Source of the DNA: a bacterium
Lineage (GTDB): Bacteria; Patescibacteriota; Minisyncoccia; UBA6257; UBA9933
Direction: 5' to 3'
NCBI GenBank assembly: GCA_030693235.1
Contig: JAUYBE010000016.1
Span: 35,917 to 99,916, forward strand
Length of the DNA: 64,000 nt
Shown: positions 12,817 to 56,846 of the stretch, one piece after another
Layout: each line of letters starts with the position of its first letter
How positions within the stretch are numbered: the first letter of the stretch is position 1
Made by a program: the position numbers and the translations under genes
The notes under the pieces: generated by a model
Told to the model about the DNA's origin: nothing
Database searches by the model: none
Seen by the model: only the letters and a program-made list of their open reading frames with translations

Positions 12817-13707
12817 TTATTGCTTTGATTTATTTTTTGCTTCATAAAGCTTCGCGTCAACCAAAAACCTGTACCAACATCCCTGTAAAAAATGAAATAT
12901 CAAGCCTTCTTTGCCGTCTAAAAACCCCAAACGGAAAAAATAGCGATAAATAAAATATAGAAAAACTCGTAAAAATTTAGGGAATTTATAATAAAAATTT
13001 CTTTTTTTACCGGCGCCGTAATCTTTTCTTAATACGTCTTCCGCTTCGCGGCTGGAATAATTATTATGCTTGGCAATCCAATCCGCTAACGGCTTTTTAT
13101 TATCGTCAATAAAATCATTTTTCAATTTTTCCGCTTTTCCTTCCGATAGAATAATGTGTTCATCCATCGCGCGTTGTTCCGAGCGCGCTTTGCCCTTCTT
13201 AAAAAGCCGCAAAATCCAAGTCGGATAATATCCGCCGTGTTTTATCCAGCGTCCCATAAAATATACGCGGCGTTTCATATAATAGCCGTTAATTTTTTGG
13301 ACATCCGATGTCCTAACATTAACGTCAATATTTGGGACATCTGATGTCCCCATATTGAACAATGTTTCGCCAATTTCTTGTTTAAGTTCTTCTGTCAAAT
13401 ATTCATCCGCGTCCAAGCGTAAAATCCACTCATTTTTAATTTTCAAATTATCCAGCGCCCAATTGAATTGCTGGGCCTGATTCTCAAATTTATGCTGAAC
13501 TACCTTCACAGACCCACGCTGACTGTCCGCGTTGGTCCGCGTTAAGTCCGCGTTAGTCAGCGCTTTGGCGATTTCCAAAGTTTTATCAGTGGAATAAGAA
13601 TCAACAACAAAAATCTCATCCGCCCAATCAGCGATATTTTTCATTAACCGCTCAATATGAATTTCTTCGTTGTAAGTTAAAATTATTATTGAAAGAGGAA
13701 TTTTCAT
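12817..13707 (-). CDS. glycosyltransferase family 2 carrying two in-frame repeat insertions
   Basis: IIILTYNEEIHIERLMKNIADWADEIFVVDSYSTDKT...RLDADEYL (DxD). Repeat family 2 at 13299-13350 encodes TSDVPNIDVNVRTSDVQ. Repeat family 3 at 13521-13563 encodes LTRTNADSQRGSV. Confidence 0.8.
   Translation of the reverse strand: MKIPLSIIILTYNEEIHIERLMKNIADWADEIFVVDSYSTDKTLEIAKALTNADLTRTNADSQRGSVKVVQHKFENQAQQFNWALDNLKIKNEWILRLDADEYLTEELKQEIGETLFNMGTSDVPNIDVNVRTSDVQKINGYYMKRRVYFMGRWIKHGGYYPTWILRLFKKGKARSEQRAMDEHIILSEGKAEKLKNDFIDDNKKPLADWIAKHNNYSSREAEDVLRKDYGAGKKRNFYYKFPKFLRVFLYFIYRYFFRLGFLDGKEGLIFHFLQGCWYRFLVDAKLYEAKNKSKQ
13299..13350. repeat. twin-palindrome element, family 2 (GGACATCCGATGTCC ... GGGACATCTGATGTCCC), in-frame in GT2
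   Basis: Two near-identical 15-17 nt perfect palindromes separated by taacattaacgtcaatattt. A second copy lies at 30949-30999. Confidence 0.7.
13521..13563. repeat. GTCCGCG/GCGGACT-type oligomer repeat, family 3, in-frame in GT2
   Basis: gactgtccgcgttggtccgcgttaagtccgcgttagtcagcgc. Related runs lie at 32521-32622, 33015-33060, 34072-34155, 39381-39462 and 47111-47152. Confidence 0.6.
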
Positions 13708-13718
13708 AAATTTTTCGT

Positions 13719-14771
13719 TTACTTAAAATAATTTTCAGCCGCGAATTTATATTGCTGAATAAATAATTCTTTAAATGCCCTGATATTATTTTGTTCATAA
13801 AAAAGTATTGTTGTTTTTTTGTAATCCGCTTCATCAACGCTTCTGTAAGAAAGCGGACAAATATTATGCGCTAAAAGAATGGCATTCCCGACAAGTCGCG
13901 CCGTTCTTTTATTGCCGTCTTCGAAGGGTTGAATATAAGACATCAAAAGCACCGCAATAAGCGCTTTTACGAAAGGATTTGACATTTTATTTATCAATGC
14001 TGTCGCGTTTTCCATTGCTTCACGCAATTGATATTCATTATCCAACGGCTTATATTTCGCGCCGACAACGCCAACGGCACGTTTTCTTATGTTATAAGAA
14101 ACATTTAATCCGGCAACCAATAAACGATGAATATCGCTTATTTTTCTAATTGTTATTTTTTTAAAATCGCTTTTATTGGCGAAAATATAATCAAGCGCTT
14201 TTTTGTGATTTAGAATCATTATCGCCTCTTCTTTTTTGTGCCCCCTGGCTTCTTTGCGCTCTTTAATAAGAATCTCCGTGTCTATCAAAGAATAAGTATT
14301 GCCTTCTATTTGAGAAGATTTCCAACTCAATTCAATCGTCAATCGCTCAAATTCTTTTTTTAAAATCGCCGGAGATAATTTTTTGATTCTTTTAATATAA
14401 TCATCTTTTATTTTTTGCAAATCAGCTAATTCATCTTCGCTTAAAATATTATTCAAGTCTTTAAAAACGCCGAAATTAAATCTTTCAAAAGCCACCCGCC
14501 TTTCATCCGGTCCTTTTTTAAAATATTCATCAATATCAATATAACCAAGCAATTTGCTTTCAACGGCTTCCTGATAATAGACCCCTCGGCCTTTGCCGAT
14601 TTTTTTAATCAATCCGTTATTCGCAAGAATATTGATATCTCTGACAACAGTAATTCTGGAAAGTTCTCCGAATATTTTTTCCGCATAATTTTTAATTTCT
14701 TTATTGCCGGCTTTCCCGCTTTTTCTAATAAATTCAAGAATTTTAAATTGACGAGCAGTTAATTTTTCCAT
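13719..14771 (-). CDS. Fic/DOC (Fido) family protein with N-terminal winged-helix; degenerate Fic motif
   Basis: The core motif reads QPFEDGNKRTAR in place of HPFx(D/E)GNGRxxR, so the catalytic His is replaced by Gln and the second Gly by Lys. The N-terminal KILEFIRKSGKAGNKEIKNYAEKIFGELSRITVVRDINILANNGLI resembles a wHTH. Confidence 0.7.
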   Translation of the reverse strand: MEKLTARQFKILEFIRKSGKAGNKEIKNYAEKIFGELSRITVVRDINILANNGLIKKIGKGRGVYYQEAVESKLLGYIDIDEYFKKGPDERRVAFERFNFGVFKDLNNILSEDELADLQKIKDDYIKRIKKLSPAILKKEFERLTIELSWKSSQIEGNTYSLIDTEILIKERKEARGHKKEEAIMILNHKKALDYIFANKSDFKKITIRKISDIHRLLVAGLNVSYNIRKRAVGVVGAKYKPLDNEYQLREAMENATALINKMSNPFVKALIAVLLMSYIQPFEDGNKRTARLVGNAILLAHNICPLSYRSVDEADYKKTTILFYEQNNIRAFKELFIQQYKFAAENYFK

Positions 14772-14808: not shown

Positions 14809-14907
14809 TCATTTTGATACAATAAATACAACGATGTTTTTCAATAACCGCTCAATATGAATTTCTTCATTGTAGGTTAAAATTATGACGCTGACGGGGA
14901 GTTTCAT
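14809..14907 (-). pseudogene. truncated duplicate of the GT2 (12817-13707) 5' end
   Basis: Translates MKLPVSVIILTYNEEIHIERLLKNIVVFIVSK-stop, 32 aa. Nucleotides 14833-14888 match 13633-13688 at high identity. Confidence 0.6.
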
Positions 14908-14909
14908 AT

Positions 14910-29365: not shown

Positions 29366-31228
29366 TTAAAATTTATTTAAAACCGCTTTCGCCCAAGAAC
29401 GGGACCAATGGGATTTAGTATTTTGTATTTGGTATTTTGTATCTTGTATCTCGCGAAGCCAGTTTTGAAACGGAAAAGTAAAACCCATTTTTGGACGGGT
29501 GAAAATTTCTTGAGGCAATAAATCGCGAACCGCGGCGACGAGAAGGGGCTTATTTATGTTTTTTAGTTCTTTAGTTTTTAAGTTTTTAAGTTTTAAGTTT
29601 GCGGGCAAACTGCTTAAATATTCAACCAGCGGGTGGTCCAAAAACGGCACCCGGACTTCAACCGAATGACGCATTGACATAAAATCGGTGTCTTTAAGCA
29701 ATTGGTTTTGAAGATAGAATTTAAGTTCAAGATAGGAAAGAAGGCCAATTGGATGTAATTGTTCTAAGTGTTGTAATTGATGCGATAATTTATCTATAAA
29801 ATTATTTACTTCTTGAACATTAGTATCTAAAATCTTCGCGGTTTCTTGAGGAGTGAATAAGCCCCTAATCCCTAAATAAAAACTTAAAATATCGTCATTG
29901 GTAAAATAACTTAATTTAGAATACTTGTCGCCAAATAAACTGCCCAATTTTAGCGGAGATTTTAAAAATTTCGGCAAATTCTGGATTTTTCTTAGTAATT
30001 CCGCCCGGCGAAAATGCGGATAACCCAAAAATATTTCATCCGCTCCTAGTCCGGAAAGAACGGTTTTTAACCCGGCCTGCTTGGCCGCCTTGGCGATAAA
30101 AAAAGTGTTGACGCCGTCTATTGTCGGCTGATCCATCGCTTCAAAAATTTCTTCAAACGAATCGTAAAAATCCTGTTTTGTTATCTTTATTTTGCGATGG
30201 TCGCTGCCTATCTTTTTTGCGACCAAGTCCGAATAATATTCTTCGGAAAATTCTGGTTCGTCGAAAATAATTGATAAAGTTTTAAGACGCTGATTTTTTA
30301 TAGTTTGAGCCGCCAGCGCCGCAATCACCGACGAATCCAATCCGCCGCTTAAAAATACGCCCAAAGGCGCGTCGCTGATAAGATGAAGATTGACGGATTC
30401 TTCTAAAAGACTTCGAATACTATCACGTGTGATAGTATTATCCTGAAAGTTCTGTGTTTTGTTTTTGAAAAATTCTAAAGGCTCATAATATTGAATTAAT
30501 TTTTGACTGCCGTCAGCTTCTCGGACTAAATAATGTCCGGCCGGCACAGCATAAACATTTTTTATCGTAGTTGTCGGTAACGGCACCGAGCCGAAAAGTA
30601 AAAAACCGATATAAGCGTCGGGGTTTTTTTGAACCAGTATTATTCCGCTGTTTTCCAGCGCCTTAACCGTTGAAGCGAAAATTAATTTTTCATTATCCGA
30701 ATAATAATAAAGGGGTTTAATGCCGTATCTGTCTTTAACTAAAAATAATTTTTGATTTTTGCCATCCCAAAGTCCAAAAGCGAACATCCCGCGAAGCATT
30801 TCAAAAGATTTTTCGCCGCATTCGGCGTATAAAGCTAAAATCACCTCGGTATCGGTTTTTGTTTTGAATTTATATCCCTTTTTCTCTAAATCTTTTTTTA
30901 ATTCCAAAAAATTATAGATTTCTCCGCTGTAGGTTATTACTAATGTCTGGACATCCGACGTCCTAAAATTACCGCCAATATTTGGGACGTCGGATGTCCT
31001 TAAAATTGACCCATTTTGCCAAATCATCGGTTGGTGGCCAGACTTTGAAAGGTCGATAATAGAAAGCCGGGAGTGCCCCAGCGCAACACCGTTTTTTACA
31101 TCAACAAAAACGCCTTCGTCGTCTGGACCGCGATTTTTCTGGGAGGTGTTCATTTTCCCCGCTGCCGCTTCCAAATCTTTTTTATTATAAATTTTTTTAT
31201 TTTGATAAATTCCGGCAATGCCGCACAT
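29366..31228 (-). CDS. asnB: asparagine synthase (glutamine-hydrolysing), glycan-locus amidotransferase type, carrying in-frame repeat insertions
   Basis: MCGIAGIY N-terminal nucleophile, SGGLDSS PP-loop, 620 aa. Insertions: family-2 palindrome 30949-30999 (RTSDVPNIGGNFRTSDVQ), and tandem oligomers at 29560-29600 (LKLKNLKTKELKN) and 29425-29455 (IQDTKYQIQNTK). Confidence 0.85.
   Translation of the reverse strand: MCGIAGIYQNKKIYNKKDLEAAAGKMNTSQKNRGPDDEGVFVDVKNGVALGHSRLSIIDLSKSGHQPMIWQNGSILRTSDVPNIGGNFRTSDVQTLVITYSGEIYNFLELKKDLEKKGYKFKTKTDTEVILALYAECGEKSFEMLRGMFAFGLWDGKNQKLFLVKDRYGIKPLYYYSDNEKLIFASTVKALENSGIILVQKNPDAYIGFLLFGSVPLPTTTIKNVYAVPAGHYLVREADGSQKLIQYYEPLEFFKNKTQNFQDNTITRDSIRSLLEESVNLHLISDAPLGVFLSGGLDSSVIAALAAQTIKNQRLKTLSIIFDEPEFSEEYYSDLVAKKIGSDHRKIKITKQDFYDSFEEIFEAMDQPTIDGVNTFFIAKAAKQAGLKTVLSGLGADEIFLGYPHFRRAELLRKIQNLPKFLKSPLKLGSLFGDKYSKLSYFTNDDILSFYLGIRGLFTPQETAKILDTNVQEVNNFIDKLSHQLQHLEQLHPIGLLSYLELKFYLQNQLLKDTDFMSMRHSVEVRVPFLDHPLVEYLSSLPANLKLKNLKTKELKNINKPLLVAAVRDLLPQEIFTRPKMGFTFPFQNWLREIQDTKYQIQNTKSHWSRSWAKAVLNKF
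30949..30999. repeat. twin-palindrome element, family 2, in-frame in asnB
   Basis: ggacatccgacgtcc taaaattaccgccaatattt gggacgtcggatgtcc. Same architecture as 13299-13350. Confidence 0.7.
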
Positions 31229-31246: not shown

Positions 31247-31507
31247 TTACTTATACAAATTACTATGCGTATCAATGGCAATGAATATGATTATATCAAA
31301 AGATATTCGCTTATAGATTGACCTAAGATCGCCGGCGATATTGACGCTCCGATAGCCCAAGTATTTTCCCCTAAGCGGGTGATTATTTAAAACCGGATTG
31401 AATTCGTCCTGAATAAATAGAGCTAATCGCTCTTTTACTTTCTCTTTCTCGTTAGTTTTAAGTTTTTTATACTGCTTTTCAAAATTTCTATGAAATCTTA
31501 TTTTCAT
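31247..31507 (-). CDS. type II toxin, RelE/ParE superfamily (YoeB-like pattern)
   Basis: 86 aa. FHRNFEKQYKKL...HPLRGKYLGYRSVNIAGDLRSIYKRISFDIIIFIAIDTHSNLY. Overlaps the upstream small ORF by 4 nt. Confidence 0.6.
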   Translation of the reverse strand: MKIRFHRNFEKQYKKLKTNEKEKVKERLALFIQDEFNPVLNNHPLRGKYLGYRSVNIAGDLRSIYKRISFDIIIFIAIDTHSNLYK

Positions 31508-31782
31508 AACGAGCCAAGATATTCTCTCATTTCTTCCGCCGACTTAAAAACGGGTGATAAATTTTTCTTATTTTTTATGTCCTTTTCCGCAATGCCTAAA
31601 AATTTTTCAAATTCAGGGATTATTTGCGGAATATCGGAAAAACGCACCTCGCGGGTTCTGATAAAATTTCTTAAAGAGGCGTTTATCACATCACTCAAAG
31701 AAATACCAATCTCCTCGGCAATCTTTTGAACATTCTCTTTTACTTCCTTATTGGTTTTTACGCTTATTACTACTTTAGCCAT
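31504..31782 (-). CDS. RelB/DinJ-family antitoxin (RHH)
   Basis: MAKVVISVKTNKEVKENVQKIAEEIGISLSDVINASLRNFI is a RelB/DinJ-type N-terminal ribbon-helix-helix. The tracked ORF extends to 31818, but MAKVV at 31782 is the likelier start. Confidence 0.5.
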   Translation of the reverse strand: MAKVVISVKTNKEVKENVQKIAEEIGISLSDVINASLRNFIRTREVRFSDIPQIIPEFEKFLGIAEKDIKNKKNLSPVFKSAEEMREYLGSL

Positions 31783-31827
31783 ATATCTAAAGTATATACA
31801 ACAGTAATCTGTTGTCAACTATTTTTT

Positions 31828-32394
31828 TTACTGATTTAATATCGCTTTCACCCTCTCATCTTCCGGCCAGTATTTAAGAATTTTTTCGCCGATTTTCCGC
31901 GTGTTTTCCTCGTCGCCTCTTAAACGGTATAGATCAAATAAATTATAAAGAACCGGCGGGAGTTTCGGACCATAAATCAAGGCCTCGCGATAATATTCTT
32001 CTGATTTTAGAAAATCGTTTTCATTACCTGATTTCTCCCATAAAAAGAAATATATCTGAGCCAAAATAAGGAGATGCCTTGTTTCATCTTTTCTCATTTT
32101 TGGCTCTAAATATTCAACTAAATAACGCGAGGCAATTTCTGGATTTTTAGGATTAGCCACCGCATTGACTAAATTATTTCCCAAAAACCTTGCCGCCTCG
32201 TAATCGCCAATCGGCGAATAAAAACCGAAAAGCTTGTCAAAAACTTTCTTAAAGTCTTCCGGGGTTTTCAGAGACGGCATTTGGTAAGCTGATTTTATAT
32301 AAAGTTGAGCCTTTTTAAAAGGCAAAATAGAACCAAAATAGATTGCGAATAAAACAATGACAATGACTATGACAATGATAATTTTTTTAATCAT
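31828..32394 (-). CDS. hypothetical membrane-anchored helical-repeat protein
   Basis: N-terminal TM (IIIVIVIVIVLFAIYFG), then helical TPR-like repeats. Confidence 0.35.
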   Translation of the reverse strand: MIKKIIIVIVIVIVLFAIYFGSILPFKKAQLYIKSAYQMPSLKTPEDFKKVFDKLFGFYSPIGDYEAARFLGNNLVNAVANPKNPEIASRYLVEYLEPKMRKDETRHLLILAQIYFFLWEKSGNENDFLKSEEYYREALIYGPKLPPVLYNLFDLYRLRGDEENTRKIGEKILKYWPEDERVKAILNQ

Positions 32395-34322
32395 ATACGA
32401 ATATCTGCTCTTAATTTATAGGTCGCAAATGCCAAAAACAGAAACAAATTAATATAAAGCGGCAAAATTTCAAATAAAACAATGCCTTGAATAAGATAAG
32501 CAACGGGCAAAGCGAATATTAACGCGGACTCAAGCGGACTTAAAAAAACGGACTTGGCGGACTTGGGCGTTAACGCGGACTGATGCTGACCTAAAACGGA
32601 CTTAGCGGACGAGGCGGACTGAGATAATAGACCCGGGGCATAAATTATTCTTTCTATTTGAACGTCATTTTTTTGACCAAAATTAACTAATAAAGCCAAT
32701 TGATAAGGCAATCCCCTTAAATAGTGCCAAATCTGTTTCTTTTCGTTTCTCCCTAAAAAGGGAAGTGATTTTAATTCTAAAATAATTTTATTCTCAATAA
32801 TAAAATCAGGTTTATAAACACCAACCTTTTTGTTGTTATACATAACATCAAGAGGTTTTTCTCTTTCAAAAATAATACCTCTTTTATTAAATTCTTCTTC
32901 CAAAGCATTCTGATAAATAAACTCTTTATGTCCTAGACCGAGTTGTTTCTTAACATCAAAGATCGCCCCTCTTATTTTATAAGTTATATCCTCGTATAAT
33001 AATTTGGAATTATTGTCCGCCATAGTCCGTGTTTTATCAAAGTCCGCTAAAGTCCGCGTCTTGAAAAGAAGTTGCCAATAAAACACTCCGAAAATGCTCA
33101 AAAAACTTAATAATCCAAGAATGCCGGTTTCGGCCAAATAGTCAAAATAAACGCTGTGCGCTCGGTCAAACCAGGCGCCAAAACCAGATGAAGGAACAAA
33201 ATATTCCGTGTTAAAATGCCGGTCAAAAACTTGTAAGAAATTCTCCGGGCCCCAGCCCAAAAGCGGTCGTTCTTTCCAGCCGTCAATGGCAATTTCCCAC
33301 ATAATTGTCCGGTGCTGAAAAGTTTCTGCCGAAAAAGAAATGTCAAAAAGTCGCGAACCGGGAATAGATTTCACAAAAGGAGTGTCTTTAAAATAAACCA
33401 TTGCGCCAACTCCTAAAATTAAAATAATTGTTAAAGCCAAAAGATGTTTCCGCCATTTCTTTTGTTGATAAACAAAATAAAAGACACCGCCAATAATCGC
33501 GGCAATTAAACCAAGAAAAGCGCCGCGGGTTGCCGCCAACCAGAAGAAGATAAAGAAAAAAATTATCAGGCCGATAAGTAACATAAATTTCTTATCCGTA
33601 TTAATCCGCGTCAATAAAAGATAACCAGCATAAAACAAAGCAAAAATTAAATAGGTGGCAGTATAAGCCGGGTTGCCTAAGGAGCCGGCAAAACGGAAAT
33701 GAGGGTCTTTAAGGGATCCGCCGATAAAACCCTTAAAGGTTTGAAAATAGGGTCCTCCTCGGCCGGTTATTTCTCTAATCTCAAAACCACTTTCTGTCCG
33801 GACGCTCATTTCCGCGTCAATATATTTTAAATGGGCGCCGATTCCGTAAAAAATTACCAAAACCGCGGCTAAAATTGAAATCCAAAATAGTTTTTTCCAA
33901 TCTTTTTCTTCCCGAAACAAAATTACCAGAAGCAAAAAGAAAATCCCAAGATAAAGTATCTGTAAACCGCCTTCCCCTCTTTCAAAATTGGACCAAAAGG
34001 ACATTGCCGGGTCAACGCCGAAAAAACAAGCAAGAAGAAATATCATGACAAAAGCGAAGACCGCCCAAACCAGCGCAGACTTACGCAGACTTAACGCAGG
34101 CTCACACAGAAAATTCCGCGTAGTTCCGCGTGTTTGTCCGCGTAGTTCCGCGTTTTGGAAAAGCAGTCCCAACAGAAAAAATATTAATGCCAAACTCACA
34201 CTTGTTCTAAAAAAAACATATTTACCGACGATAAAAGGAAAAAGCGTAGAAGTAGAAACAATAACAACGCTAAATGGAACAAGATAAAGAAAAAATTTGG
34301 AAAGTTTGAAGTAATTTATCAT
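32391..34322 (-). CDS. O-antigen ligase-like polytopic membrane protein with an internal GxxExxY module and in-frame family-3 repeat insertions
   Basis: About 12 TM helices and a Wzy_C/O-antigen-ligase-like core (aa ~60-420). Aa ~445-545 FDVKKQLGLGHKEFIYQNALEEEFNKRGIIFEREKPLDVMYNNKKVGVYKPDFIIENKIILELKS is the GxxExxY protein-family signature. Repeat-encoded peptides lie at aa ~56-83, ~421-436 and ~567-600. A C-terminal TM helix follows. Confidence 0.55.
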   Translation of the reverse strand: MINYFKLSKFFLYLVPFSVVIVSTSTLFPFIVGKYVFFRTSVSLALIFFLLGLLFQNAELRGQTRGTTRNFLCEPALSLRKSALVWAVFAFVMIFLLACFFGVDPAMSFWSNFERGEGGLQILYLGIFFLLLVILFREEKDWKKLFWISILAAVLVIFYGIGAHLKYIDAEMSVRTESGFEIREITGRGGPYFQTFKGFIGGSLKDPHFRFAGSLGNPAYTATYLIFALFYAGYLLLTRINTDKKFMLLIGLIIFFFIFFWLAATRGAFLGLIAAIIGGVFYFVYQQKKWRKHLLALTIILILGVGAMVYFKDTPFVKSIPGSRLFDISFSAETFQHRTIMWEIAIDGWKERPLLGWGPENFLQVFDRHFNTEYFVPSSGFGAWFDRAHSVYFDYLAETGILGLLSFLSIFGVFYWQLLFKTRTLADFDKTRTMADNNSKLLYEDITYKIRGAIFDVKKQLGLGHKEFIYQNALEEEFNKRGIIFEREKPLDVMYNNKKVGVYKPDFIIENKIILELKSLPFLGRNEKKQIWHYLRGLPYQLALLVNFGQKNDVQIERIIYAPGLLSQSASSAKSVLGQHQSALTPKSAKSVFLSPLESALIFALPVAYLIQGIVLFEILPLYINLFLFLAFATYKLRADIRI

Positions 34323-37149: not shown

Positions 37150-37215
37150 GGAGTGAGGCGGTGTAGATTAGGTGTTAGGTGATAGGTGTTAGAAAAAAAT
37201 TACCCTAAAAACTAA
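37150..37215. repeat. heptamer-array element, family 4 (GGTGTTA array + CTAAAAAC array)
   Basis: ttaggtgttaggtgataggtgttag-aaaaaaattac-cctaaaaactaaaaactaa. Full copies lie at 49892-49960 and 56683-56750. Confidence 0.55.
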
Positions 37216-38160: not shown

Positions 38161-40762
38161 GTTTTTGAATCAGTCGTTTGACCGGTCGAGCGCCGTATTC
38201 CGGGTCAAAACCGGCCTCAGCCAAATGCTTTTTCAAAGAATTTTCAAAAACCTGCTTAATGTTTTTCTTAGCCAATCTTTCTTTCACCTGCTCCAATTGA
38301 ATCTCCACGATTTTTTCCATTTCTTTCGCCGTTAAAGAATTAAAAATTATAATCTCGTCCAAGCGATTTAAAAATTCCGGCCGGAAAGTTTCTTTAAGTT
38401 CTGACATTACTTTCTCATGAAAAATTTTAGCCTTGTCGCTCGCGCCTTCTTTTTCTTTATCTGTCGGCGATTCGAATCCAATCCGGGAAATTTCTTTAAA
38501 ATATTCACCGCCGACATTGGAAGTCAGAATAATAACGGCGTTTTTAAAATTAACCAGTTTCCCCTTGCCGTCTGTTAAGCGACCGTTATCCAAAATCTGA
38601 AGCAGGATATTAAAAACTTCCGGATGAGCTTTTTCAATTTCATCAAAAAGAATTAAGCTGTAGGGCCTGTGCCGGACAACTTCGGTTAATTGGCCGCCCT
38701 CTTCGTGACCGACATAGCCTGGCGGCGAACCGATTAGCCGGCTGGTTGAATGCCTTTCCATATACTCGCTCATATCAATGCGAACCAGAGCTTTTTCATC
38801 GTTGAACATAAATTCCGCCAAAGCCCGAGCCAGTTCGGTTTTTCCCACGCCGGTCGGCCCCAAAAACATAAAAGAACCGAGGGGTTTGTCTTCTTCGGAT
38901 AACCCGGCGCGGCCTCGGCGCAACGCGTTGGCAACGGCTTTAATCGCCTCTTCTTGCCCAACCACTCGTTCGCTGAGCACTTCTTCTATTTTAGAAAATT
39001 TTTCCATTTCCGATTCAAGCATTTTTGAAACCGGAATGCCGGTCCATCGGGAAATCACCTCGGCAATATCTTCTTCATAAACCGCTTCTTTGATGAACCG
39101 TTCATCTAACTTTTGACTTTTGACTTTTGACTTTTGACTTTCTCCTGTGTATTTTTTTTCAAACGCCTTAAGCTCTCTTTCGGCCTGCGGCAATTCGCCG
39201 TAAACAATTCTCGCCACCCGTTCCAAACTTCCTTCGCGTTCGGCCATCTCGGCTTGATGGCGCAAGTCCTCAATTTTTTTTCGCAGATTATGAAGATGCT
39301 CAAAAGAAATTTTTTCCGCGTGCCACTTGGCGGAAAGTTCGTCGTTCTCTTCTTTTAATTTCGCCAGTTCTTTTTCAATCGCGGACTTACGCTGACTAAA
39401 CGCAGACTCACGCGGACTTTTTCTGCGTAGTTCCGCATCTTGTTCCGCGTAGTTCTGCGTCTCCGAAAGCAGAGCCTGGCGTTCAATTTCCAAACGGGTG
39501 ATTTCCCGACGTAATTTATCAATTTCCATGGGCAGACTTTCTGTTTCCAATCGCCTGGCCGCCGCGGCTTCGTCAATTAAATCAACCGCTTTGTCCGGCA
39601 AAAAACGGTTGCTGATATAGCGGGCCGAAAGATTAACCGCCGCGATTATCGCTTCATCGCTGATTCTGATGCCGTGATGCATTTCATATTTTTCTTTCAA
39701 GCCGCGCAAAATCGCGATTGAATCTTCAATTGAAGGTTCGTCAACCATAATCGGCGCGAACCGGCGTTCCAAAGCCGCGTCTTTTTCAATATAGCGCTGA
39801 TATTCTCTAATAGTGGTGGCGCCGATTGCCCTAAGTTCGCCGCGCGCCAAAGCCGGCTTCAATAAATTGGAAGCGTCAACCGCGCCTTCGGCGGCGCCGG
39901 CGCCGACAATCATATGAATCTCGTCAATAAAAAGAATATATTTGCCGGCGGCCTGCTGAATTTCTTTTATAAAAGCTTTTAATCGGTCTTCAAATTCGCC
40001 GCGGAATTTGGTGCCGGCAATCAAAGAACCCAAGTCAAGCATAATGATTTCCCGATTTTTCAAAGGCTCGGGAACGTCGCCGGAAATAATTCTTTGCGCC
40101 AAACCTTCAACAACGGCTGTTTTGCCGACGCCGGACTCTCCGATTAAAACCGGATTATTTTTGGTTCGGCGGGACAACACCTGAATCAACCGGCGAAGTT
40201 CTTCATTGCGGCCGATTACCGGGTCAAGTTTTCCGGCTCTCGCCTGTTCGGTTAAATTAACGGCGTATTTTTCCAGAACTTGAAATTTTGATTCCGGCAT
40301 TTCATCGGTAATCCGCATTGAACCTCTAAGACCGGCTAAAATTCTTAAAGCTATTTCCCTGCGCAAGCCGAATTCTTCAAGCAAACGGCTTACTTGCGAA
40401 TCAGATTCCAAAATCGCCAAAAGCAAGTGCTCGCAAGAAATGAATTCGTCTTTTTGATTGGTCGCGATTTTCGCCGCCTTGTCCAGCGCCTTCATTAATT
40501 CCTGGGAAAGATAAAGTTGGGCAAGTCCGCCGCCGCCGACAATTTTCGGCCCCTTTTTTAAAATTTCTTCAACGCGCCGGTTTAACGCTTCCAAATTAAC
40601 GCCGGCCTTGAGAAGAAGCGGCCGCACCAAAGAGCTTTCGTCAATTATCAAAGCCGCCAAAAGATGAACAATTTTAAATTCGCCGTGATTTTCTTTGGCC
40701 GCGATTTCCTGGGCGTTTTGCAACGCCTCCTGAGCTTTAATTGTAAAACGATGAAAATTCAT
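38048..40762 (-). CDS. clpB: ClpB disaggregase (AAA+ chaperone, two NBDs) with repeat-encoded insertions in the M-domain region
   Basis: N-domain, GESGVGKT and GPTGVGKT Walker A motifs, 904 aa. Aa ~433-460 ([20 protein letters not shown]) is encoded by family-3 repeat 39381-39462. Aa ~541-551 ([11 protein letters not shown]) is encoded by the (ttttgac)4 array at 39108-39140. Confidence 0.9.
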
Positions 40763-46859: not shown

Positions 46860-47645
46860 CTAATCTTTATTTTTGAAGCCGTCAAGAATTCTTTTTAATT
46901 CTTCGGGCAGTTCGGCCGCTATTTTTATTCGTCTACCCGGGGAAATATTAAATTCCAAAGATTCGGCGTGAAGAAACTGGCGCTTTAAGCCGAATGAATT
47001 TTCTTTCGGTCCGTAAAGCGAATCACCGACAATCGGATAACCGATTGAAGCTAAATGAACTCTAATTTGATGGGTCCGACCGGTTTTTGGCATTACTTTC
47101 AGCAAGCTGAAAGTCGCTGACTGACGCGGACTTAACGCCGACAAACGCGGAATTTCAATATATTTAATGACTCTATATTCTGTAATCGCCTCTTTTTCCA
47201 GCCTGCCCTTCCAAACGGTTCTTTTGATAGCGCCTGATTTAATACTGATTGGTTTTTTAATAACGCCGGTTTTCGGTTCAAGTTTTCCCCAAACCAAAGC
47301 CAGATAAGTTTTTTTTATTTGACTGCCTTGTCTCCCTTCGGGAGATCTCCCGTAGGGAGAAAAAAGATTTTTTAAATATTCAAAATATTTCTGATTGCGC
47401 GCGACCAACAATACGCCGGAGGTATCTTTATCTAAACGATGAACAATGCCCGGCCGAGTTTGAGGTTCATCGCCGACATTTTTAACTTCGGGATATTTTT
47501 CCGATAGCCAATCAACTAAGGTAAAATCAGGTTTTAGGTTTTGGGTTTTAGGTTTTAGATTAATTGAGTGGACCAAGATGCCGGCCGGCTTATAAACCGC
47601 CAAGAAATTTTTGTCTTTGTAAATGACGCGGATTTGATTTTGCAT
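46860..47645 (-). CDS. RluA-family 23S rRNA/tRNA pseudouridine synthase with repeat-encoded insertions
   Basis: HRLDKDTSGVLLVARN catalytic-Asp motif. NLKPKTQNLKP is encoded by heptamer array 47520-47560. LSALSPRQSATFS is encoded by family-3 repeat 47111-47152. Confidence 0.8.
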   Translation of the reverse strand: MQNQIRVIYKDKNFLAVYKPAGILVHSINLKPKTQNLKPDFTLVDWLSEKYPEVKNVGDEPQTRPGIVHRLDKDTSGVLLVARNQKYFEYLKNLFSPYGRSPEGRQGSQIKKTYLALVWGKLEPKTGVIKKPISIKSGAIKRTVWKGRLEKEAITEYRVIKYIEIPRLSALSPRQSATFSLLKVMPKTGRTHQIRVHLASIGYPIVGDSLYGPKENSFGLKRQFLHAESLEFNISPGRRIKIAAELPEELKRILDGFKNKD

Positions 47646-48997: not shown

Positions 48998-49081
48998 TGC
49001 CGAGGGAGGGACTCGAACCCTCAAGGGCTTGCGCCCGTAACATTTTGAGTGTTATGCGGTTGCCAATTTCGCCACCTCGGC
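48998..49081 (-). tRNA. tRNA-Leu (anticodon CAA)
   Basis: Reverse complement gccgagg...taaca-ctCAAaa-tgtta, long variable arm cgggcgcaagcccttg. Acceptor gccgagg/cctcggc, discriminator A. Confidence 0.8.
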
Positions 49082-49128
49082 TAAATTTTCATTGATAATA
49101 GCACAATTTTCTCTTATAGTAAAGAATT

Positions 49129-49890
49129 ATGACTCGCGTTATCGCAATCTGTAATCAAAAAGGCGGCGTTGGAAAAACAACTGCCGCTATAAATTTATCA
49201 ACTTATTTGGCGGTTTTGGGTAAAAAAGTTTTACTGATTGATTTTGACCCACAAGCCAACGCCACCTCGGGACTGGGAATAAATCCCAAAGAATTAAACG
49301 ACACTGTTTATCACGGCATCTTGGGATACGCCTCAATTGAAAATTTAATCAAGAATACGAAAATTTTTAATCACCATTTAATTCCGGCGAATCAGCATTT
49401 AGCCGGCGCTTTGGTGGAATTGGTCAATCTGGACGAGCGGGAATTTTTTCTTAAAAAATTCATAAACCGGCTCCGGCCTGAATACGATTATATTTTTATT
49501 GATTTGCCCCCTTCTTTGAGTTTGTTAACCGTCAATGGTTTAGCCGCCAGCGACGAAGTTTTAATTCCCATTCAATGCGAATATTACGGGCTTGAAGGCT
49601 TAGGCCAACTTTTGGAAACCGTTGACATGATTAACAATAATTTAAACCAAAATATTAAAATTGCCGGAGCGTTATTAACGATGTATGATAAAAGAGAAAA
49701 ATTGTCGCGGGAAGTGGCTTTTGAGGTCAGAAAACATTTTCCGCATTATGTTTTTGAAAATGAAATCCCCCGCTGCGTGTCATTGGCCGAAGCGCCGAGT
49801 TTTGGAAAACCGATTATTTTATATAATCCCGGTTCCAGCGGCGCCATGGCCTATGAAAGACTGGCGAGGGAAATAATTGGACGAGAATAA
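49129..49890 (+). CDS. parA: ParA/Soj chromosome-partitioning ATPase
   Basis: IAICNQKGGVGKTTAAINL deviant Walker A. 253 aa. Confidence 0.85.
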   Translation: MTRVIAICNQKGGVGKTTAAINLSTYLAVLGKKVLLIDFDPQANATSGLGINPKELNDTVYHGILGYASIENLIKNTKIFNHHLIPANQHLAGALVELVNLDEREFFLKKFINRLRPEYDYIFIDLPPSLSLLTVNGLAASDEVLIPIQCEYYGLEGLGQLLETVDMINNNLNQNIKIAGALLTMYDKREKLSREVAFEVRKHFPHYVFENEIPRCVSLAEAPSFGKPIILYNPGSSGAMAYERLAREIIGRE

Positions 49891-49891
49891 A

Positions 49892-49960
49892 GTTTTTAGG
49901 TTTTAGTTTTTAGGTTTTAGTAAATTTCTAACACCTAACACCTAACACCTAACACCTAAA
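49892..49960. repeat. heptamer-array element, family 4, filling the entire parA-parB spacer
   Basis: (tttttagg/ttttag)x4 - taaatttc - (taacacc)x4. The two halves can pair as an imperfect hairpin, with GUUUUAG against CUAACAC. Confidence 0.6.
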
Positions 49961-49963
49961 TAA

Positions 49964-50947
49964 ATGTTAGGCAAAGGACTGGAATCTTTAATTCCAAAAA
50001 AACAAAACATTCAGTCTCCTCAACAAGGCCAACAAATCGACTCCAACGAAAAGCCGGCGGAGGGCGCTGATGCTTTTCGCGCAGCAACTCCTGTAAATAA
50101 GCCGGCGGCCAAAGACGCCATCTTTTATATTGAAACGGAAAAAATCAAACCCAATCCCCATCAACCACGCCGAGATTTCAACGAGGAATCTTTAAAAGAA
50201 TTGGCAAACTCCATTCGAGAACATGGTATTCTTCAACCCCTGATCGTTTCCAAAATTGAAAAAGAAACCGAATTCGGAACTAAAGTAGAATATCAATTAA
50301 TCGCTGGCGAAAGACGATTAAGAGCTTCTCAAATAGCGGGATTGGAAAGTGTGCCGGTAATTATTAAAAATATCGTTAAAGATGCCGAGCATCTGGAAAT
50401 GGCGATTGTTGAAAATCTGCAACGCGCTGATTTAAATCCGGTTGAAACCGCCCGGGCTTACGCCAAACTGCAAGATGTTTTCGGCTTGACCCAAAGAGAG
50501 GTCGCTCAACGCTTGGGCAAAAGCCGGGAAACCATTGCCAATACTTTAAGGCTTTTAAATCTGCCGACGGAAATTCAAGAAGCGGTTGCTAAAAATCAAA
50601 TCAATGAAAGCCAGGCGCGGTTGCTTTTGACGATTGGCGACCAAATTCAACAACAAAATCTTTTCAATGAAATTATTTCCAATAATTTAAGCGTCCGGGA
50701 ATTGCGACAGCGAATTCGGAAAACTTCACCCGTCATTGCGAGCGCAAGCGAAGCAATCTCGCCTATTGTTAATCCTGAAATCCTTAATTTTCAAGAACAG
50801 CTCACCGAACTTTTAGGAGCTAAAGTGAAAATTAAACCCTTCGGCAATGCTCAGGGCAAAGGCGGAGAAATTATTATTGATTTTTATTCGGCGGAAGAAA
50901 TTGAAGGAATAATAAAAAAACTTTCTCCGGAAAATAATTTGGAATAG
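49964..50947 (+). CDS. parB: ParB/Spo0J partition protein carrying a family-1 half-element in-frame
   Basis: LQPLIV...LIAGERRLRASQIAG, HTH. SPVIASASEAISPI is encoded by half-element 50732-50760. Confidence 0.85.
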   Translation: MLGKGLESLIPKKQNIQSPQQGQQIDSNEKPAEGADAFRAATPVNKPAAKDAIFYIETEKIKPNPHQPRRDFNEESLKELANSIREHGILQPLIVSKIEKETEFGTKVEYQLIAGERRLRASQIAGLESVPVIIKNIVKDAEHLEMAIVENLQRADLNPVETARAYAKLQDVFGLTQREVAQRLGKSRETIANTLRLLNLPTEIQEAVAKNQINESQARLLLTIGDQIQQQNLFNEIISNNLSVRELRQRIRKTSPVIASASEAISPIVNPEILNFQEQLTELLGAKVKIKPFGNAQGKGGEIIIDFYSAEEIEGIIKKLSPENNLE

Positions 50948-50961
50948 AGAATTTTTGTGTG

Positions 50962-51032
50962 TGGAGGTGCGGAGAATCGAACTCCGGTTTGATCAATGCG
51001 AATGACCCGTTATACCACTTAACTACACCCCC
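50962..51032 (-). tRNA. tRNA-Ala (anticodon CGC)
   Basis: Reverse complement gggggtg...ggtca-ttCGCat-tgatc. Acceptor GGGGGTG/CACCTCC gives the G3:U70 Ala identity pair. Discriminator A. Confidence 0.7.
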
Positions 51033-51165
51033 CCCTATTCTGCTATAATATAACGAGGTAATTAAAAAATCAAAAGGGGTGAATAAAAATACCAACTCGC
51101 TTTTCCGTCGCCGCCAAATTTTCCGCCAGAGACAGACAGGCGTGTCAGCGAATCTGACGCGCCGC

Positions 51166-51894
51166 TTATTCTTTTGCTCTCGCCTTAATTTTTAATTTCT
51201 CTGGCAACTTCTCAATAGCATACCTCAAAGCTGTGCGAGGCATTAACTTTCTATTTTTGATTACAAAATCAAAAACCTCTTTCTGATGTAAATTACTTGC
51301 TTCCTTTAACATCCAACCATAACCTTTCTGCGCTAAATCTTCCTTATCTTGTAAAAGAATTTTTGCCGCACTAAAAGCTTCTTTTAAATATTTTCCTTTG
51401 CGCAGAGAATAGATTAAGACTACAGCGGAAGCACGGCGAAACCATTTATTGGATGATTTGGCCCATTGTTTTGTTTGTGGCAAAAATTCCGGAAATTGGC
51501 ATATAAATTCTCCAAAAGCGTGCGTACATAAATCATCACAACTGCCCCAAGTATCTACGTAGTTTTTGAGCCAGCTTTCAAAAATTTTATAATCCTCTTT
51601 CTGATATTGCTTTCTGATTCTGAAAGCCCAATCAAATGCGATGTCCCGATAACCGCTTCCATTAATTTTTAATAGTTTTTCGCATAAAGAAAAAATTTGC
51701 TTCTTTTCAAGATTTTTTACTTCTTTAAAATTTTTGAAAGCTACTTTTCTTACCAACGGAGTGGCAATGCCGATATGTATTTTGCCATCCTTGTGAAATT
51801 TTGAATAATCCTTAATGTTCTTAGGATTTTTACACAACTTTTTTAACTCAAAACTAATTTTTTCTAAAACATTTACAGTCCCCATACTTTCCAA
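51166..51894 (-). CDS. DNA alkylation repair enzyme (AlkD-like HEAT-repeat glycosylase family)
   Basis: 242 aa all-helical. Pattern ...RKVAFKNF...WAFRIRKQY...WGSCDDLCTHAF... is typical of the DNA_alkylation family. Confidence 0.6.
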   Translation of the reverse strand: MESMGTVNVLEKISFELKKLCKNPKNIKDYSKFHKDGKIHIGIATPLVRKVAFKNFKEVKNLEKKQIFSLCEKLLKINGSGYRDIAFDWAFRIRKQYQKEDYKIFESWLKNYVDTWGSCDDLCTHAFGEFICQFPEFLPQTKQWAKSSNKWFRRASAVVLIYSLRKGKYLKEAFSAAKILLQDKEDLAQKGYGWMLKEASNLHQKEVFDFVIKNRKLMPRTALRYAIEKLPEKLKIKARAKE

Positions 51895-51964
51895 TTTTTA
51901 GGAAAAGTTAATCCCAAAGTTCTGGAATAAACAATCAATTCGCCTTGGTGCAAGATTTCATAAT

Positions 51965-52122
51965 CTACTTTATTAAATCATCAACCAAAACCTCTAATGC
52001 TTTGGCGATTTTAGTTAAGGTTTTAATTGTAGGATTTTGATTAACGCCGTTTTCTATTTTTACAATGGTATTTAGCGATAAATCAACAAAATTTCTTTAA
52101 TAGCAATTTATCCTAAAGACAT
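51965..52122 (-). pseudogene. degraded XRE-family HTH regulator
   Basis: Minus strand reads ATG-MSLG-TAA, then in a shifted frame IAIKEILLIYR-stop, then ...LNTIVKIENGVNQNPTIKTLTKIAKALEVLVDDLIK-stop. Together this is the MSLGxxIKELR...IENGxxNPxxxTLxKIAKALxV..DDL pattern of Cro/C1-type HTH proteins, broken by stops. Confidence 0.45.
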
Positions 52123-52189
52123 CTATCCCTTGAAAAACGCTAATGAAAAATTGAAAGAAAAATTTAAAAATTTTCTAAATGGCTAATTG

Positions 52190-52260
52190 TCGGGCCGCCC
52201 GGATTTGAACCGGAGCTAAATCCTCCCGAAGGACTCGTGCTACCGCTACACTACGGCCCG
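52190..52260 (-). tRNA. tRNA-Pro (anticodon CGG)
   Basis: Reverse complement cgggccg...agtcc-ttCGGga-ggatt. Acceptor C1:G72 (cgggccg/cggcccg), discriminator A. These are bacterial Pro identity features. Confidence 0.7.
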
Positions 52261-53084
52261 ATATTAATTATGGTTATTGCGATTTGTTCTCCATAAAATA
52301 TTTGAGATAAATTTTTGACCCTTTCCGAATCCTCTGTTGTCAGAAAAATTCTCTTGCCGGTTTTTGATAATTTATTTTCTATTTCCGGATGCCGCGCCAA
52401 ATAATTCCTTAATTTCTCCGCGATAATCGGTCCCTGAGAAATCACCTTAATGCCTAGCGACAAATATTTTTTAATTTTATCTTCAATAATCGCGTAATGG
52501 GTACAGCCCAAAATAATCGTATCAATTTTTCGACTTTTTGAGAATAGCTGATTTAAATATTTTTCAATCGCCAAATCCAAATTTTTCTGTTCAATCTCGC
52601 CGGCTTCAATAATCGGAACTAAAAGCGGGCAAGCCTGCTGATAAACTTTAATTTCAGGAAAAAATTTATTAATTTCTTTTTGGTAAGTCAGGGAATTAAC
52701 CGTCGCCTCTGTAGCCAATACTCCAATTTCTCGCGTGTTCGTAAATCTGCCAATTTCTTCGGCAGTCGGAATAATGATGCCAAGAACTCGCTTCTCAGAA
52801 TAGTGCTTCTGTAGAAATTCCCGCTGAATTTTTCTTAAAGCCGCGCTTGAAGAAGTATTGCAAGCCAAAACCACCAATTCCGCGTCGCGCCTAAATAATT
52901 CCTCAACGCCTTCAACGGTAAATTTATAGATTATTTCCTGACTTCTTGAACCATAAGGAGTCCGGGCGTTGTCGCCTAAATAAATATAAGAATATTCCGG
53001 CAAAATTTTAACAACCTCTTTTAGAATTGTTAAGCCGCCGAGTCCGGAATCAAAAAAACCAATCATAAAATTAGTATAAATCAA
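52251..53084 (-). CDS. murI: glutamate racemase
   Basis: IGFFDSGLGGLTILKEV...LVLACNTSS...ILGCTHYA. Confidence 0.85.
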   Translation of the reverse strand: MIYTNFMIGFFDSGLGGLTILKEVVKILPEYSYIYLGDNARTPYGSRSQEIIYKFTVEGVEELFRRDAELVVLACNTSSSAALRKIQREFLQKHYSEKRVLGIIIPTAEEIGRFTNTREIGVLATEATVNSLTYQKEINKFFPEIKVYQQACPLLVPIIEAGEIEQKNLDLAIEKYLNQLFSKSRKIDTIILGCTHYAIIEDKIKKYLSLGIKVISQGPIIAEKLRNYLARHPEIENKLSKTGKRIFLTTEDSERVKNLSQIFYGEQIAITIINIGP

Positions 53085-53159
53085 TTCATTCTATCTCGCC
53101 AACCAAATTAGCATGCTCTAACCCAATAGAGCGCTCTATCGCGATAGAGCGGTAGAAAA

Positions 53160-53196
53160 ATAAAAAAGAGGATAAAAAACTTTATCCTTTTTTAGT
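53160..53196 (-). terminator. bidirectional rho-independent terminator downstream of cca
   Basis: gaggataaa-aaac-tttatcctc hairpin with T-runs on both strands. An adjacent perfect palindrome atagagcgctctat/ctatcgcgatag lies at 53126-53152. Confidence 0.6.
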
Positions 53197-53264
53197 AAAT
53201 ATAAAAATACTTATTAATTATTTACTATCCTATCCTGACGATCGTTTAGATAAGATAGTGATTC

Positions 53265-54788: not shown

Positions 54789-54833
54789 TGTTTTTAATTA
54801 TAAACTAAAAATTACGAACTATAAACTAATTTT

Positions 54834-54905
54834 GCCCTCGTAGTCTAATGGATAAAACGCGAGCCTTCGAAGCTCGATTTGGGGGTTCGAGTCCCTCCGA
54901 GGGCA
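54834..54905 (+). tRNA. tRNA-Arg (anticodon TCG)
   Basis: gccctcg...cgagc-ctTCGaa-gctcg...ttcgagt...cgagggc, discriminator A. Confidence 0.75.
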
Positions 54906-54911
54906 CATAAA

Positions 54912-54984
54912 GCGCCCATAGCTCAGTTGGCAGAGCAATTGCCTCTTAAGCAAAAGGTCCCAGGTTCGAGCCCTGGTGGGCGCA
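54912..54984 (+). tRNA. tRNA-Lys (anticodon CTT)
   Basis: gcgccca-ta-gctcagttggcagagc...ctCTTaa...ggttcgagccc...tgggcgc, discriminator A. Confidence 0.8.
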
Positions 54985-54990
54985 CAAAAA

Positions 54991-55200
54991 ATGATTAAAA
55001 AAACATTAATTTTTATAATTATTTTATTTGCTTTACTTGGCCTGTATTTTATTTATAATTATTTTATTCAGCCGAGTAGTGAAGCGCCGATTGAAATAAA
55101 TAATGGTCAAATTCAAGAAATTCCAATAAGCGACGGCTTTCGAGGACCAAGCGGTTCGCCTTCAATAAAAGGCCCGAGCGGTCCACCGCCGGAAAATTAG
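54991..55200 (+). CDS. small hypothetical secreted/membrane protein with Gly-Pro-rich tail
   Basis: MIKKTLIFIIILFALLGLYFIY signal-anchor, GFRGPSGSPSIKGPSGPPPEN tail. May not be expressed. Confidence 0.3.
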   Translation: MIKKTLIFIIILFALLGLYFIYNYFIQPSSEAPIEINNGQIQEIPISDGFRGPSGSPSIKGPSGPPPEN

Positions 55201-55229
55201 GTGTTAGGTTTTAGTTTTTAGTTTAAATT

Positions 55230-55303
55230 GCGGGTGTAATATAGTGGTAATATACGTGCTTGCCAAGTACGATACGAGGGTTCGATTCCCTTCACCCGCT
55301 CCA
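55230..55303 (+). tRNA. tRNA-Gly (anticodon GCC), CCA encoded
   Basis: gcgggtg...cgtgc-ttGCCaa-gtacg...ggttcgattccc...cacccgc-t-cca. Confidence 0.8.
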
Positions 55304-56674: not shown

Positions 56675-56682
56675 TTAATAAT

Positions 56683-56750: not shown

Positions 56751-56846
56751 ACTATCCTCGACCTTTGGTTTAAGTATGTCAAATTATATAGGAAAAGTCT
56801 ACCTTTTTATTGTCAATCGTCAACAGTCAAAAGTCAATAGTTTTCA

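Follow-up and report, generated by a model that had tools for sequence, protein, structure and literature searches.

In-frame palindromic doublets in genes of Patescibacteria: a probable REP family associated with a RAYT-like transposase

Repetitive extragenic palindromic (REP) sequences, the doublets that they form (REPINs), and the REP-associated tyrosine transposases (RAYTs) linked to them are known almost exclusively from work on Proteobacteria, where the repeats are extragenic. This work concerns a palindromic element found in a 64,000-nt stretch of a patescibacterial genome (GenBank assembly GCA_030693235.1, contig JAUYBE010000016.1, positions 35,917 to 99,916), hereafter the window, where a twin-unit module of about 51–52 nt is common to the open reading frames (ORFs) of two unrelated proteins, a family-2 glycosyltransferase (GT2) and a glutamine-hydrolysing asparagine synthase (AsnB). 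These modules are very probably REP doublets, i.e., REPIN-like, non-autonomous members of a REP-RAYT system that extends across the Patescibacteria and has the core GGACRTCNGAYGTCC. They are taken as such because the same core flanks a Y1 transposase with a fold best matched by 4ER8, a RAYT of Escherichia coli.

The two modules lie where an earlier reading, made from the sequence alone (the sequence-only reading), had placed them, at 13299–13349 in the GT2 ORF and at 30949–30999 in the AsnB ORF, each in frame in a minus-strand ORF. Both consist of two 15-nt units carrying the core, with a 21-nt spacer in between, and they are identical at 45 of 52 positions, with the similarity ending right at their edges. 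When up to two mismatches are allowed, the core pattern has eight hits in the window, namely these four sites on both strands, against the 0.12 expected from shuffles, and a third mismatch brings in one extra, doubtful site only. The GT2 ORF reads FNMGTSDVPNIDVNVRTSDVQK across the module (also written GTSDVPNIDVNVRTSDVQ), with the junction peptide TSDVPNIDVNVR, and the AsnB ORF reads ILRTSDVPNIGGNFRTSDVQT (also written RTSDVPNIGGNFRTSDVQ), flanked by HQPM and SGEIYN; the in-frame TSDVPNI..RTSDV peptides and the location within AsnB given by the sequence-only reading are thereby confirmed.

Regarding the structure of the modules, the description as two perfect palindromes holds for the GT2 copy. 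The 15-mers of the AsnB copy are imperfect as local palindromes, with one A·C or G·T position each, and either is the exact reverse complement of the other. The length of 51–52 nt had to be revised: both the folds and an alignment of 18 copies reveal outer stems (AATWT/AWATT) that lengthen the element beyond its 51-nt core to about 70 nt, and one REP unit, i.e., the 15-nt core with its outer stems, measures about 27–30 nt. Forms of the hairpin core include GGACATCNGATGTCC and AAGTTAGGACATCGGATGTCCTAACTT. A search of the window for a second variant, GGARGTCNGACYTCC, did not find it. In an Rfam scan of the window only tRNAs reached the threshold, the element receiving nothing beyond sub-threshold, miRNA-like hairpin matches. 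A chimeric assembly had been named as something to exclude; the Logan assembly of SRR13727537, made independently, matches the window without a difference across 3,863 nt that include the AsnB copy, which argues against it.

The element belongs to a family that is widespread in one part of the bacterial tree. A scan of one genome per species (185,579 species) for two cores lying 10–40 nt apart yielded 113 doublets in 111 stretches, and all but three of the 80 titled records are labelled either as Patescibacteria lineages (Paceibacterota, Saccharibacteria, Kaiser-, Moran-, Uhr-, Jorgensen-, Brenner-, and Niyogibacteria) or as plain “bacterium”. The GC content of these loci goes from 33 to 66%, and the GC-rich variants, GGACGTCCGACGTCC, contain CGTC as an internal stem where the AT-rich form reads CATC. 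Several doublet-bearing contigs can occur in a single metagenome-assembled genome, such as MFSF01, DATEBU01, and JBAYLD01. Spacers of 10–14 nt prevail, with a second class of 19–24 nt, and a 21-nt spacer identical or nearly identical to that of the window was met in loci L009, L016, L021, L030, L057, L104, and L110. Two other origins were considered for the family and rejected. The doublet matched once in a collection of 2.9 M viral contigs, which speaks against a phage origin, and DNA uptake sequences (DUS/USS) occur at about one per kb and arise through point substitutions in sequence already present, as opposed to four units in 64 kb here, at sites that have moreover grown by insertion.

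Most doublets lie inside genes. Spanning open frames of at least 150 residues contain 78 of the 113 (69%), the figure for windows drawn at random from the same loci being 86%. Each of the three frames occurs among these 78: TSDV in 46, DI[GR]C in 17, and GH[PR]MS in 15. The hosts confirmed by Pfam are topoisomerase I (TopA), the CCA-adding enzyme, SecA, a Mur ligase, threonyl-tRNA synthetase (ThrRS), Fmt, and RecG. Within the subfamily with the 21-nt spacer, 10 of 12 copies read GTSDVPNIxxNxRTSDVQ, and in L009 and L030 the DNA of the element is read on the opposite strand.

What is conserved in these copies is the pairing rather than the peptide. Among GT2 orthologues, which share about 65–80% of their amino acids, the codons of TSDV are nearly always ACA TCN GAT GTC, and where they change the change is compensated, as in ACG..GAC of L129 and AAG TCC GAC TTC of L122. 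Four-fold degenerate third positions are 76.5% identical within the element, compared with 45% in the remainder of the GT2 gene. Compensated stems of the family include GGACGTC/GACGTCC, GGAAGTC/GACTTCC, and GGACAC/GTGTCC. Covariation supports both of the structures that a doublet can adopt: across the 18 aligned copies, which include orthologues, so that double changes are not to be counted as independent events, the long helix between unit 1 and unit 2 is 98.9% paired with 19 double-change cells, the centre column included, and for the local hairpins, whose model leaves the centre column unpaired, the pairing is 96.8% and the double-change cells number 10. In addition, the unit centres are complementary in 93 of the 113 doublets. 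The proposal that a palindromic repeat invading ORFs at the DNA level lies behind the identical peptides is thus borne out, as the core occurs in unrelated genes and in all three frames, and its synonymous sites are conserved with compensation.

The connection with an enzyme emerged from the loci found by the pattern. Five of these (L034, L059, L076, L094, and L101) contain an ORF of ~200–220 residues bracketed by core units, and flanking of this transposase by the core on both sides amounts to 11 cases in total. The protein, typically of ~216 residues, has the motifs NHYHLL (HUH) and YIHLNP (Tyr), and both the HUH histidines and the tyrosine are invariant among 35 homologues. It passes the Pfam model Y1_Tnp (PF01797) with 30 bits at a cut-off of 23, and its match with the NCBIfam model for REP-associated tyrosine transposases, NF047646 (39.8 bits, E 4e-10), stays under the cut-off of 80. 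The family counts more than 2,000 proteins, which, where named, are labelled as Patescibacteria lineages or plain “bacterium”. Sequence searches of the PDB, run both with a single RAYT and with a profile of 25 sequences, returned no match. For the AlphaFold model of the transposase (predicted local distance difference test, pLDDT, 80.5; predicted template modelling score, pTM, 0.80), the top Foldseek match is 4er8_A (E 1.1e-5, TM score 0.62 on the target), with IS608 and ISDra2 TnpA next. The 4ER8 structure shows the REP-associated tyrosine transposase of E. coli in complex with a REP hairpin, and the link with it comes from the fold search only. The patescibacterial enzyme is a distant branch of RAYT.

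As an unbiased test of the association, six homologues (L115–L118, L201, and L202) were picked by protein similarity alone, and all six have the core on both sides, within about 40 nt. In four of the six the flanking cores are exact, one (L202) has a single loop change, a TCG loop, on both sides, and one (L117) has the compensated form GGACAC..GTGTCC, again on both sides; the centres of the two flanking units are inverted in five of the six and the same in L202. An example of such flanks is AAGTTA-GGACATCGGATGTCC-TAACTT upstream with the C-centred form at the stop codon. Four of the six RAYTs share the synteny DnaE, RNase HII, L32, NusB, RNase III, SMC, RAYT, RNase R, S16, TrmD, RpoB, RpoC, the remaining two are in different neighbourhoods, and the RAYT was seen once per fetched locus. 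A RAYT flanked by its own units in a housekeeping context is a pattern known from REPtrons and domesticated RAYTs (PMC3733652; PMC5581495; PMC3116915). Three RAYT genes (L034, 3411; L059, 1573; L094, 413) have, besides the flanking units, an extra in-frame core unit in their N-terminal part; the element invades the gene of its own presumed transposase.

In the two host genes of the window, the units arrived as insertions, since the filled sites are 16–23 residues longer than the empty ones. As the alignment of orthologues around both sites confirmed, most AsnB and GT2 orthologues are without the insertion. In GT2, the stretch between RLDADE and KRRVYFMG has 25–26 residues in 46 of the 80 metagenome orthologues, and where the twin is present it has 42. 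Most AsnB orthologues, from Wolfebacteria-like Patescibacteria, read HQPM-EYKDLW-ITFNGEIYN (empty form HQPMEYKDLWITFNGEIYN), and the twin is present in the window protein and in three orthologues (P0005, P0006, and P0030); further orthologues have a shorter twin or a lone TSDV unit, and others have quite different repeat-like peptides at the identical site. In a codon-level comparison, filled AsnB genes (L113 and L114) exceed the syntenic empty gene of L112 by 23 residues. L112 has the closest empty AsnB site, at 74% amino acid identity, and both this gene and the empty GT2 sites are too diverged to place the junctions, i.e., the exact insertion boundaries and any target duplication. On a neighbour-joining tree of GT2 (a short tree, with no bootstrap), the TSDV-bearing orthologues are scattered among empty ones and ones with other repeat families, and on this ground a single ancient insertion in GT2 was rejected. 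The sequence-only reading had held that a motif forming part of a conserved domain in orthologues would tell against it: some orthologues do have the motif at the same site, in a patchy manner, next to empty sites and other repeats, and no conserved domain is involved. In the AlphaFold model of the window AsnB, the residues encoded by the element (77–92, RTSDVPNIGGNFRTSD) are predicted to form a loop between two beta-strands; of the six segments in which pLDDT stays below 50, this is the longest, and the lowest 10-residue block (mean 40) lies within it.

Both sites are shared with other repeats. Among orthologues, each is occupied by at least five unrelated families of repeat-encoded peptides, seen for AsnB in P0002–P0080 (HQPM..NGEIYN) and for GT2 in P0122–P0240 and L119–L198 (LKxEI..INGFY). 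Examples of peptides that share these sites are YQKSNIKNQKEL, FKRQGKSDKGKES, YPHKSVKVRINPRI, SFSLNPLTPRFAGLRFRLGFGEKEISS, RVNPLLNNQDPRQSAS, and INADKKLIDADNISINQQNQHESA, and further families at the hot spots are represented by NPLTPRFAGLRFRLGFGEKE, SINQQNQHKSA, and TNADLTRTNAD. The GT2 of L155 has two families side by side, with the twin adjoining another repeat. A second site in AsnB, in L112 (4874–4924) and L114 (10944–10994), holds a sister doublet, GGAAGTCCGACCTCC + CAAATATTGACGTTAAT.. + GGAGGTCGGACTTCC, whose spacer is the same as that of the window element and whose stems differ; each of its units is the perfect reverse complement of the other and, taken locally, an imperfect palindrome. 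Moreover, the threonyl-tRNA synthetase genes of two genomes (L091, 1926–1979; L106, 359–412) have a doublet with a 24-nt spacer at the same position, read as GFYYDFDFN[MI]GTSDVPNINKNN[IF]RTSDV, which makes this a further orthologous site that is kept in more than one genome.

By analogy with the characterised RAYT and IS200-type enzymes (TnpA-REP, IS200/IS605), a RAYT would recognise the folded REP hairpin in single-stranded DNA, cut beside it, and then move or copy the doublet. Because these genomes have almost no intergenic space, most insertions would land in genes, and the copies that persist would be those with a length that is a multiple of three bases, with no stop in the frame of the host, and in a surface or otherwise tolerant loop, where they would be translated as about 16–23 extra residues. 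On the same analogy, a RAYT may well mobilise the copies of the window, and the genome to which the window belongs presumably encodes one. The sole, indirect sign of mobility is the patchy presence and absence among orthologues.

Several points weigh against a REP-RAYT system as the origin of the window modules. A tblastn search found no RAYT gene in the 64-kb window, and the REP-RAYT link therefore rests on other Patescibacteria genomes. No direct repeat indicative of target-site duplication, such as a miniature inverted-repeat element (MITE) of a DDE transposase would leave, was seen in the 18 aligned copies or in the comparison of filled and empty sites, where the junctions can be placed only roughly. 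No invariant GTAG tag accompanies the units, the commonest flank among 252 of them being GTTA before the initial GG (25), with TGTA in the same position in 8. With two doublets, i.e., four units, in 64 kb, the density is low relative to classical REP-rich genomes. That the insert is translated and not removed is suggested by open frames only. Lastly, distantly related orthologues have the doublet at one and the same site, patchily on the tree and with other repeat families there too, and random transposition followed by selection accounts for this recurrence only loosely; recombination, insertion targeted to pre-existing hairpins, or direct selection for a host-level role of the hairpin may contribute to the reuse of sites and to the frozen synonymous sites.

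The last of these possibilities can be taken further, namely that the hairpins are kept for a function in host DNA or RNA, such as a signal for processing by RNase III/RNase R or for stability, a translational pause site, or a protein-binding site, with the RAYT association being secondary. The conserved synonymous sites (76.5% versus 45%), the compensatory pairing at orthologous sites of hosts with about 70% amino acid identity, and the constancy of the core from 33 to 66% GC would all suit such a role, and in four genomes the RAYT gene lies immediately next to that of RNase R, with the RNase III gene two genes upstream. We nevertheless consider it unlikely: the element is absent from most orthologues, it is patchy on the gene tree and can be swapped with unrelated repeat families at the same site, its hosts have no functional theme, and no Rfam family matches it, while the REPIN model already expects active doublets to be more conserved than singlets (PMC3116915). 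It is also quite unlikely that the units are orphan palindromes of the Rickettsia palindromic element (RPE) or CGTC-REP type, spread by recombination or by another enzyme, for which the RAYT gene is a mere frequent landing place. The CGTC within the GC-rich variants recalls the CGTC-type REPs, which, RPE-4 and RPE-6 included, frequently lie within genes and lack a transposase of their own (PMC3733652), and the in-frame units within RAYT genes indicate that this gene and its surroundings do receive units. Against this stand the six independently chosen RAYTs, all with one unit per side at no more than about 40 nt and five with inverted centres, and the divergent flanks (GGACAC..GTGTCC in L117 and the TCG loop in L202), which change alike on both sides and so fit an enzyme that co-evolves with its own REP, as in REPtrons.

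At the protein level, the TSDV..NI..TSDV peptide might be a functional module under selection, as could be argued from its recurrence in most copies of the 21-nt-spacer subfamily (10 of 12) and from the excess of the TSDV frame (46 of 78). This explanation is highly improbable, because elsewhere the same DNA gives DIGCP or GHPMS, or is read on the opposite strand (L009 and L030), the third codon positions are frozen, and the peptide, predicted to be disordered, is absent from most orthologues; the bias in frame is what selection against frames rich in Cys/Met or containing stops would produce. As for an artefact of assembly or binning, palindromes are able to cause chimeric joins, yet its probability appears negligible in view of the identical independent assembly over 3,863 nt, the presence of the element at one and the same site in many orthologues that were assembled separately, and the intact reading frames.

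With the REP/REPIN-RAYT systems already characterised (E. coli TnpA-REP, 4ER8; Pseudomonas fluorescens REPINs; REPtrons), the patescibacterial family shares short palindromes that occur mostly as inverted doublets foldable into one long hairpin, and units of the same kind that flank an HUH/Y1 tyrosine transposase with a fold nearest to 4ER8. Unlike them, its doublets are very short (a core of 40–51 nt) and mostly intragenic and in frame (69%) instead of extragenic, its units have no conserved GTAG tag, one 15-nt core serves a superphylum rather than a genus, and the enzyme falls under the NCBIfam cut-off (39.8 versus 80 bits) and has an extra C-terminal helical part of ~60 residues. The enzyme superfamily (Y1_Tnp) and the recognition of DNA ends as hairpins are also those of IS200/IS605 and its miniature derivatives, the palindrome-associated transposable elements (PATEs). 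However, the patescibacterial transposase does not look like a multi-copy insertion sequence, being found in the same housekeeping synteny in four genomes, and its repeats are symmetric REP units and not distinct left and right ends. A further likeness, by description and not by sequence, is with RPE-1, reportedly presented by Ogata et al. in 2000 as palindromic selfish DNA that lies in frame in unrelated protein genes and is tolerated at surface positions. RPE-1 is said to measure 100–150 nt and to be confined to Rickettsia, and we know of no transposase for it.

The closest precedents are the intragenic GTAG/CGTC REP dimers of Opitutus terrae, Thauera, and Rickettsia conorii (RPE-4/RPE-6), which lie in frame and add 20–30 residues (Di Nocera et al. 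2013, PMC3733652). As in Patescibacteria, in-frame dimers are found there in known genes, with replication and repair genes among the hosts (PMC3733652). In contrast, intragenic copies are a minority there and the rule here, the sequences and the phylum differ, and the CGTC REPs have no associated transposase while the patescibacterial family has one; moreover, their terminal CGTC tag is absent here. Since intragenic REP dimers had already been described in other phyla, the kind of element is not new. A literature search, confined to one searchable library, for REP/RAYT or in-frame palindromes in bacteria of the candidate phyla radiation (CPR) found nothing relevant, and this particular family is apparently undescribed. 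What sets it apart is its mainly intragenic nature, the constancy of the 15-nt core across a superphylum, and the sharing of its sites with other repeat families.

The same kind of system is now seen in the ultra-small, gene-dense Patescibacteria, which offer a natural test of how a hairpin transposon fares when it has only genes to land in, and it gives some insertions in CPR housekeeping proteins, hitherto unexplained, a concrete origin. Annotation and phylogenomics should take note of such repeat peptides, because those of the TSDVPNI..RTSDV type create spurious similarity between unrelated proteins as well as loops of variable length in marker genes. The deep conservation of a REP core together with its enzyme could also help in working out the rules of RAYT-REP recognition. 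A broader view can be offered, tentatively and as something rather short of an even chance: that one ancient RAYT-REP pair is common to much of the Patescibacteria (CPR), its core remaining constant over 33–66% GC and its REPINs residing mainly inside essential genes as translated loops, and that these REPINs, with the other hairpin families of the hot spots, are a general source of lineage-specific protein insertions in CPR. If so, the frozen synonymous sites at orthologous positions would mean that the RAYT keeps renewing the copies or that the hairpin serves the host, and not merely that the copies are recent.

Table 1. Coordinates of the two host genes, the elements inserted in them, and their units (positions in the window; unit sequences given for both strands).
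Feature	Position	Strand	Description
Host gene 1, GT2, 296 aa	12817..13707	-	element between LKQEIGETL and INGYYMKRRVYFMGRW
Whole GT2 element, about 72 nt	13287..13358	-	two tandem extended hairpins, TCAATAT..(unit)..ATATTGA and CGTTAAT..(unit)..ATTAACG; RNA and DNA folds z -4.1 and -5.4; translation FNMGTSDVPNIDVNVRTSDVQKIN
GT2 REP unit 1 (coding orientation)	13335..13349	-	coding GGACATCAGATGTCC, plus strand GGACATCTGATGTCC; perfect 7+1+7 palindrome, 17 nt over 13334-13350
GT2 spacer, 21 nt	13314..13334	-	coding CAAATATTGACGTTAATGTTA
GT2 REP unit 2 (coding orientation)	13299..13313	-	coding GGACATCGGATGTCC, plus strand GGACATCCGATGTCC; perfect palindrome
Host gene 2, AsnB, 620 aa	29366..31228	-	element at beta-hairpin tip, HQPM to ITYSGEIYN
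Whole AsnB element, about 70 nt, ends approximate	30940..31009	-	single long hairpin; folds z -5.2 to -7.3; translation SILRTSDVPNIGGNFRTSDVQTL
AsnB REP unit 1 (coding orientation)	30985..30999	-	coding GGACATCCGACGTCC, plus strand GGACGTCGGATGTCC; one A·C mismatch locally; exact reverse complement of unit 2
AsnB REP unit 2 (coding orientation)	30949..30963	-	coding GGACGTCGGATGTCC, plus strand GGACATCCGACGTCC; one G·T position locally

The window contains other repeats as well. A second family, with units ACGCGGAC / GTCCGCGT, lies in frame in ORFs at 13526–13564, 34053–34166, 39380–39469, and 47115–47152; its copy in GT2 reads TNADLTRTNADSQ, and related TNADLTRTNAE peptides occupy the GT2 hot spot of other orthologues. 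At the N-terminus of a Wzy_C-like ORF, 105 nt with this second family fold to one long hairpin (-44.7 kcal/mol). Short tandem-like repeats, TTAGGTGTTAGG / CTAACACCTAAC, are present in both orientations at 37168–37194, 47524–47572, 49886–49964, 54328–54376, 55191–55224, and 56670–56757, with several copies near the tRNA genes at 48998–55300.

At 32391–34322 on the minus strand, especially 32547–32630 and 33015–33062, a GxxExxY/PDDEXK_3 nuclease-like domain lies in frame in an O-antigen-ligase-like ORF, bracketed by GCGGAC units upstream and GTCCGC units downstream, an arrangement suggestive of a mobile cassette equipped with hairpin repeats of its own. The L112 orthologue has the same fusion of Wzy_C and PDDEXK_3, and in L114 a separate 23S_rRNA_IVP gene is located between a second Wzy_C gene and the gene that precedes AsnB. 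The GxxExxY/PDDEXK_3 and 23S-IVS-protein cassettes were considered as the mobilising gene of the doublets and rejected, as they are bracketed by the different GCGGAC repeat, while the TSDV core brackets Y1 transposases.

Close to GT2, the 5′ end of the gene (13629–13708) recurs as an 80-nt stretch of 81% identity at 14829–14908, beyond a 350-residue ORF (13719..14771) that is Fic/DOC-like by eye only; this copy suggests that the start of GT2 had been duplicated and that the ORF was inserted within it or beside it. Directly upstream of asnB, at 31247–31818, is a small toxin-antitoxin-like pair, which is absent from the syntenic loci L112–L114 and whose 86-residue ORF has a YafQ_toxin match in the identical locus L200.

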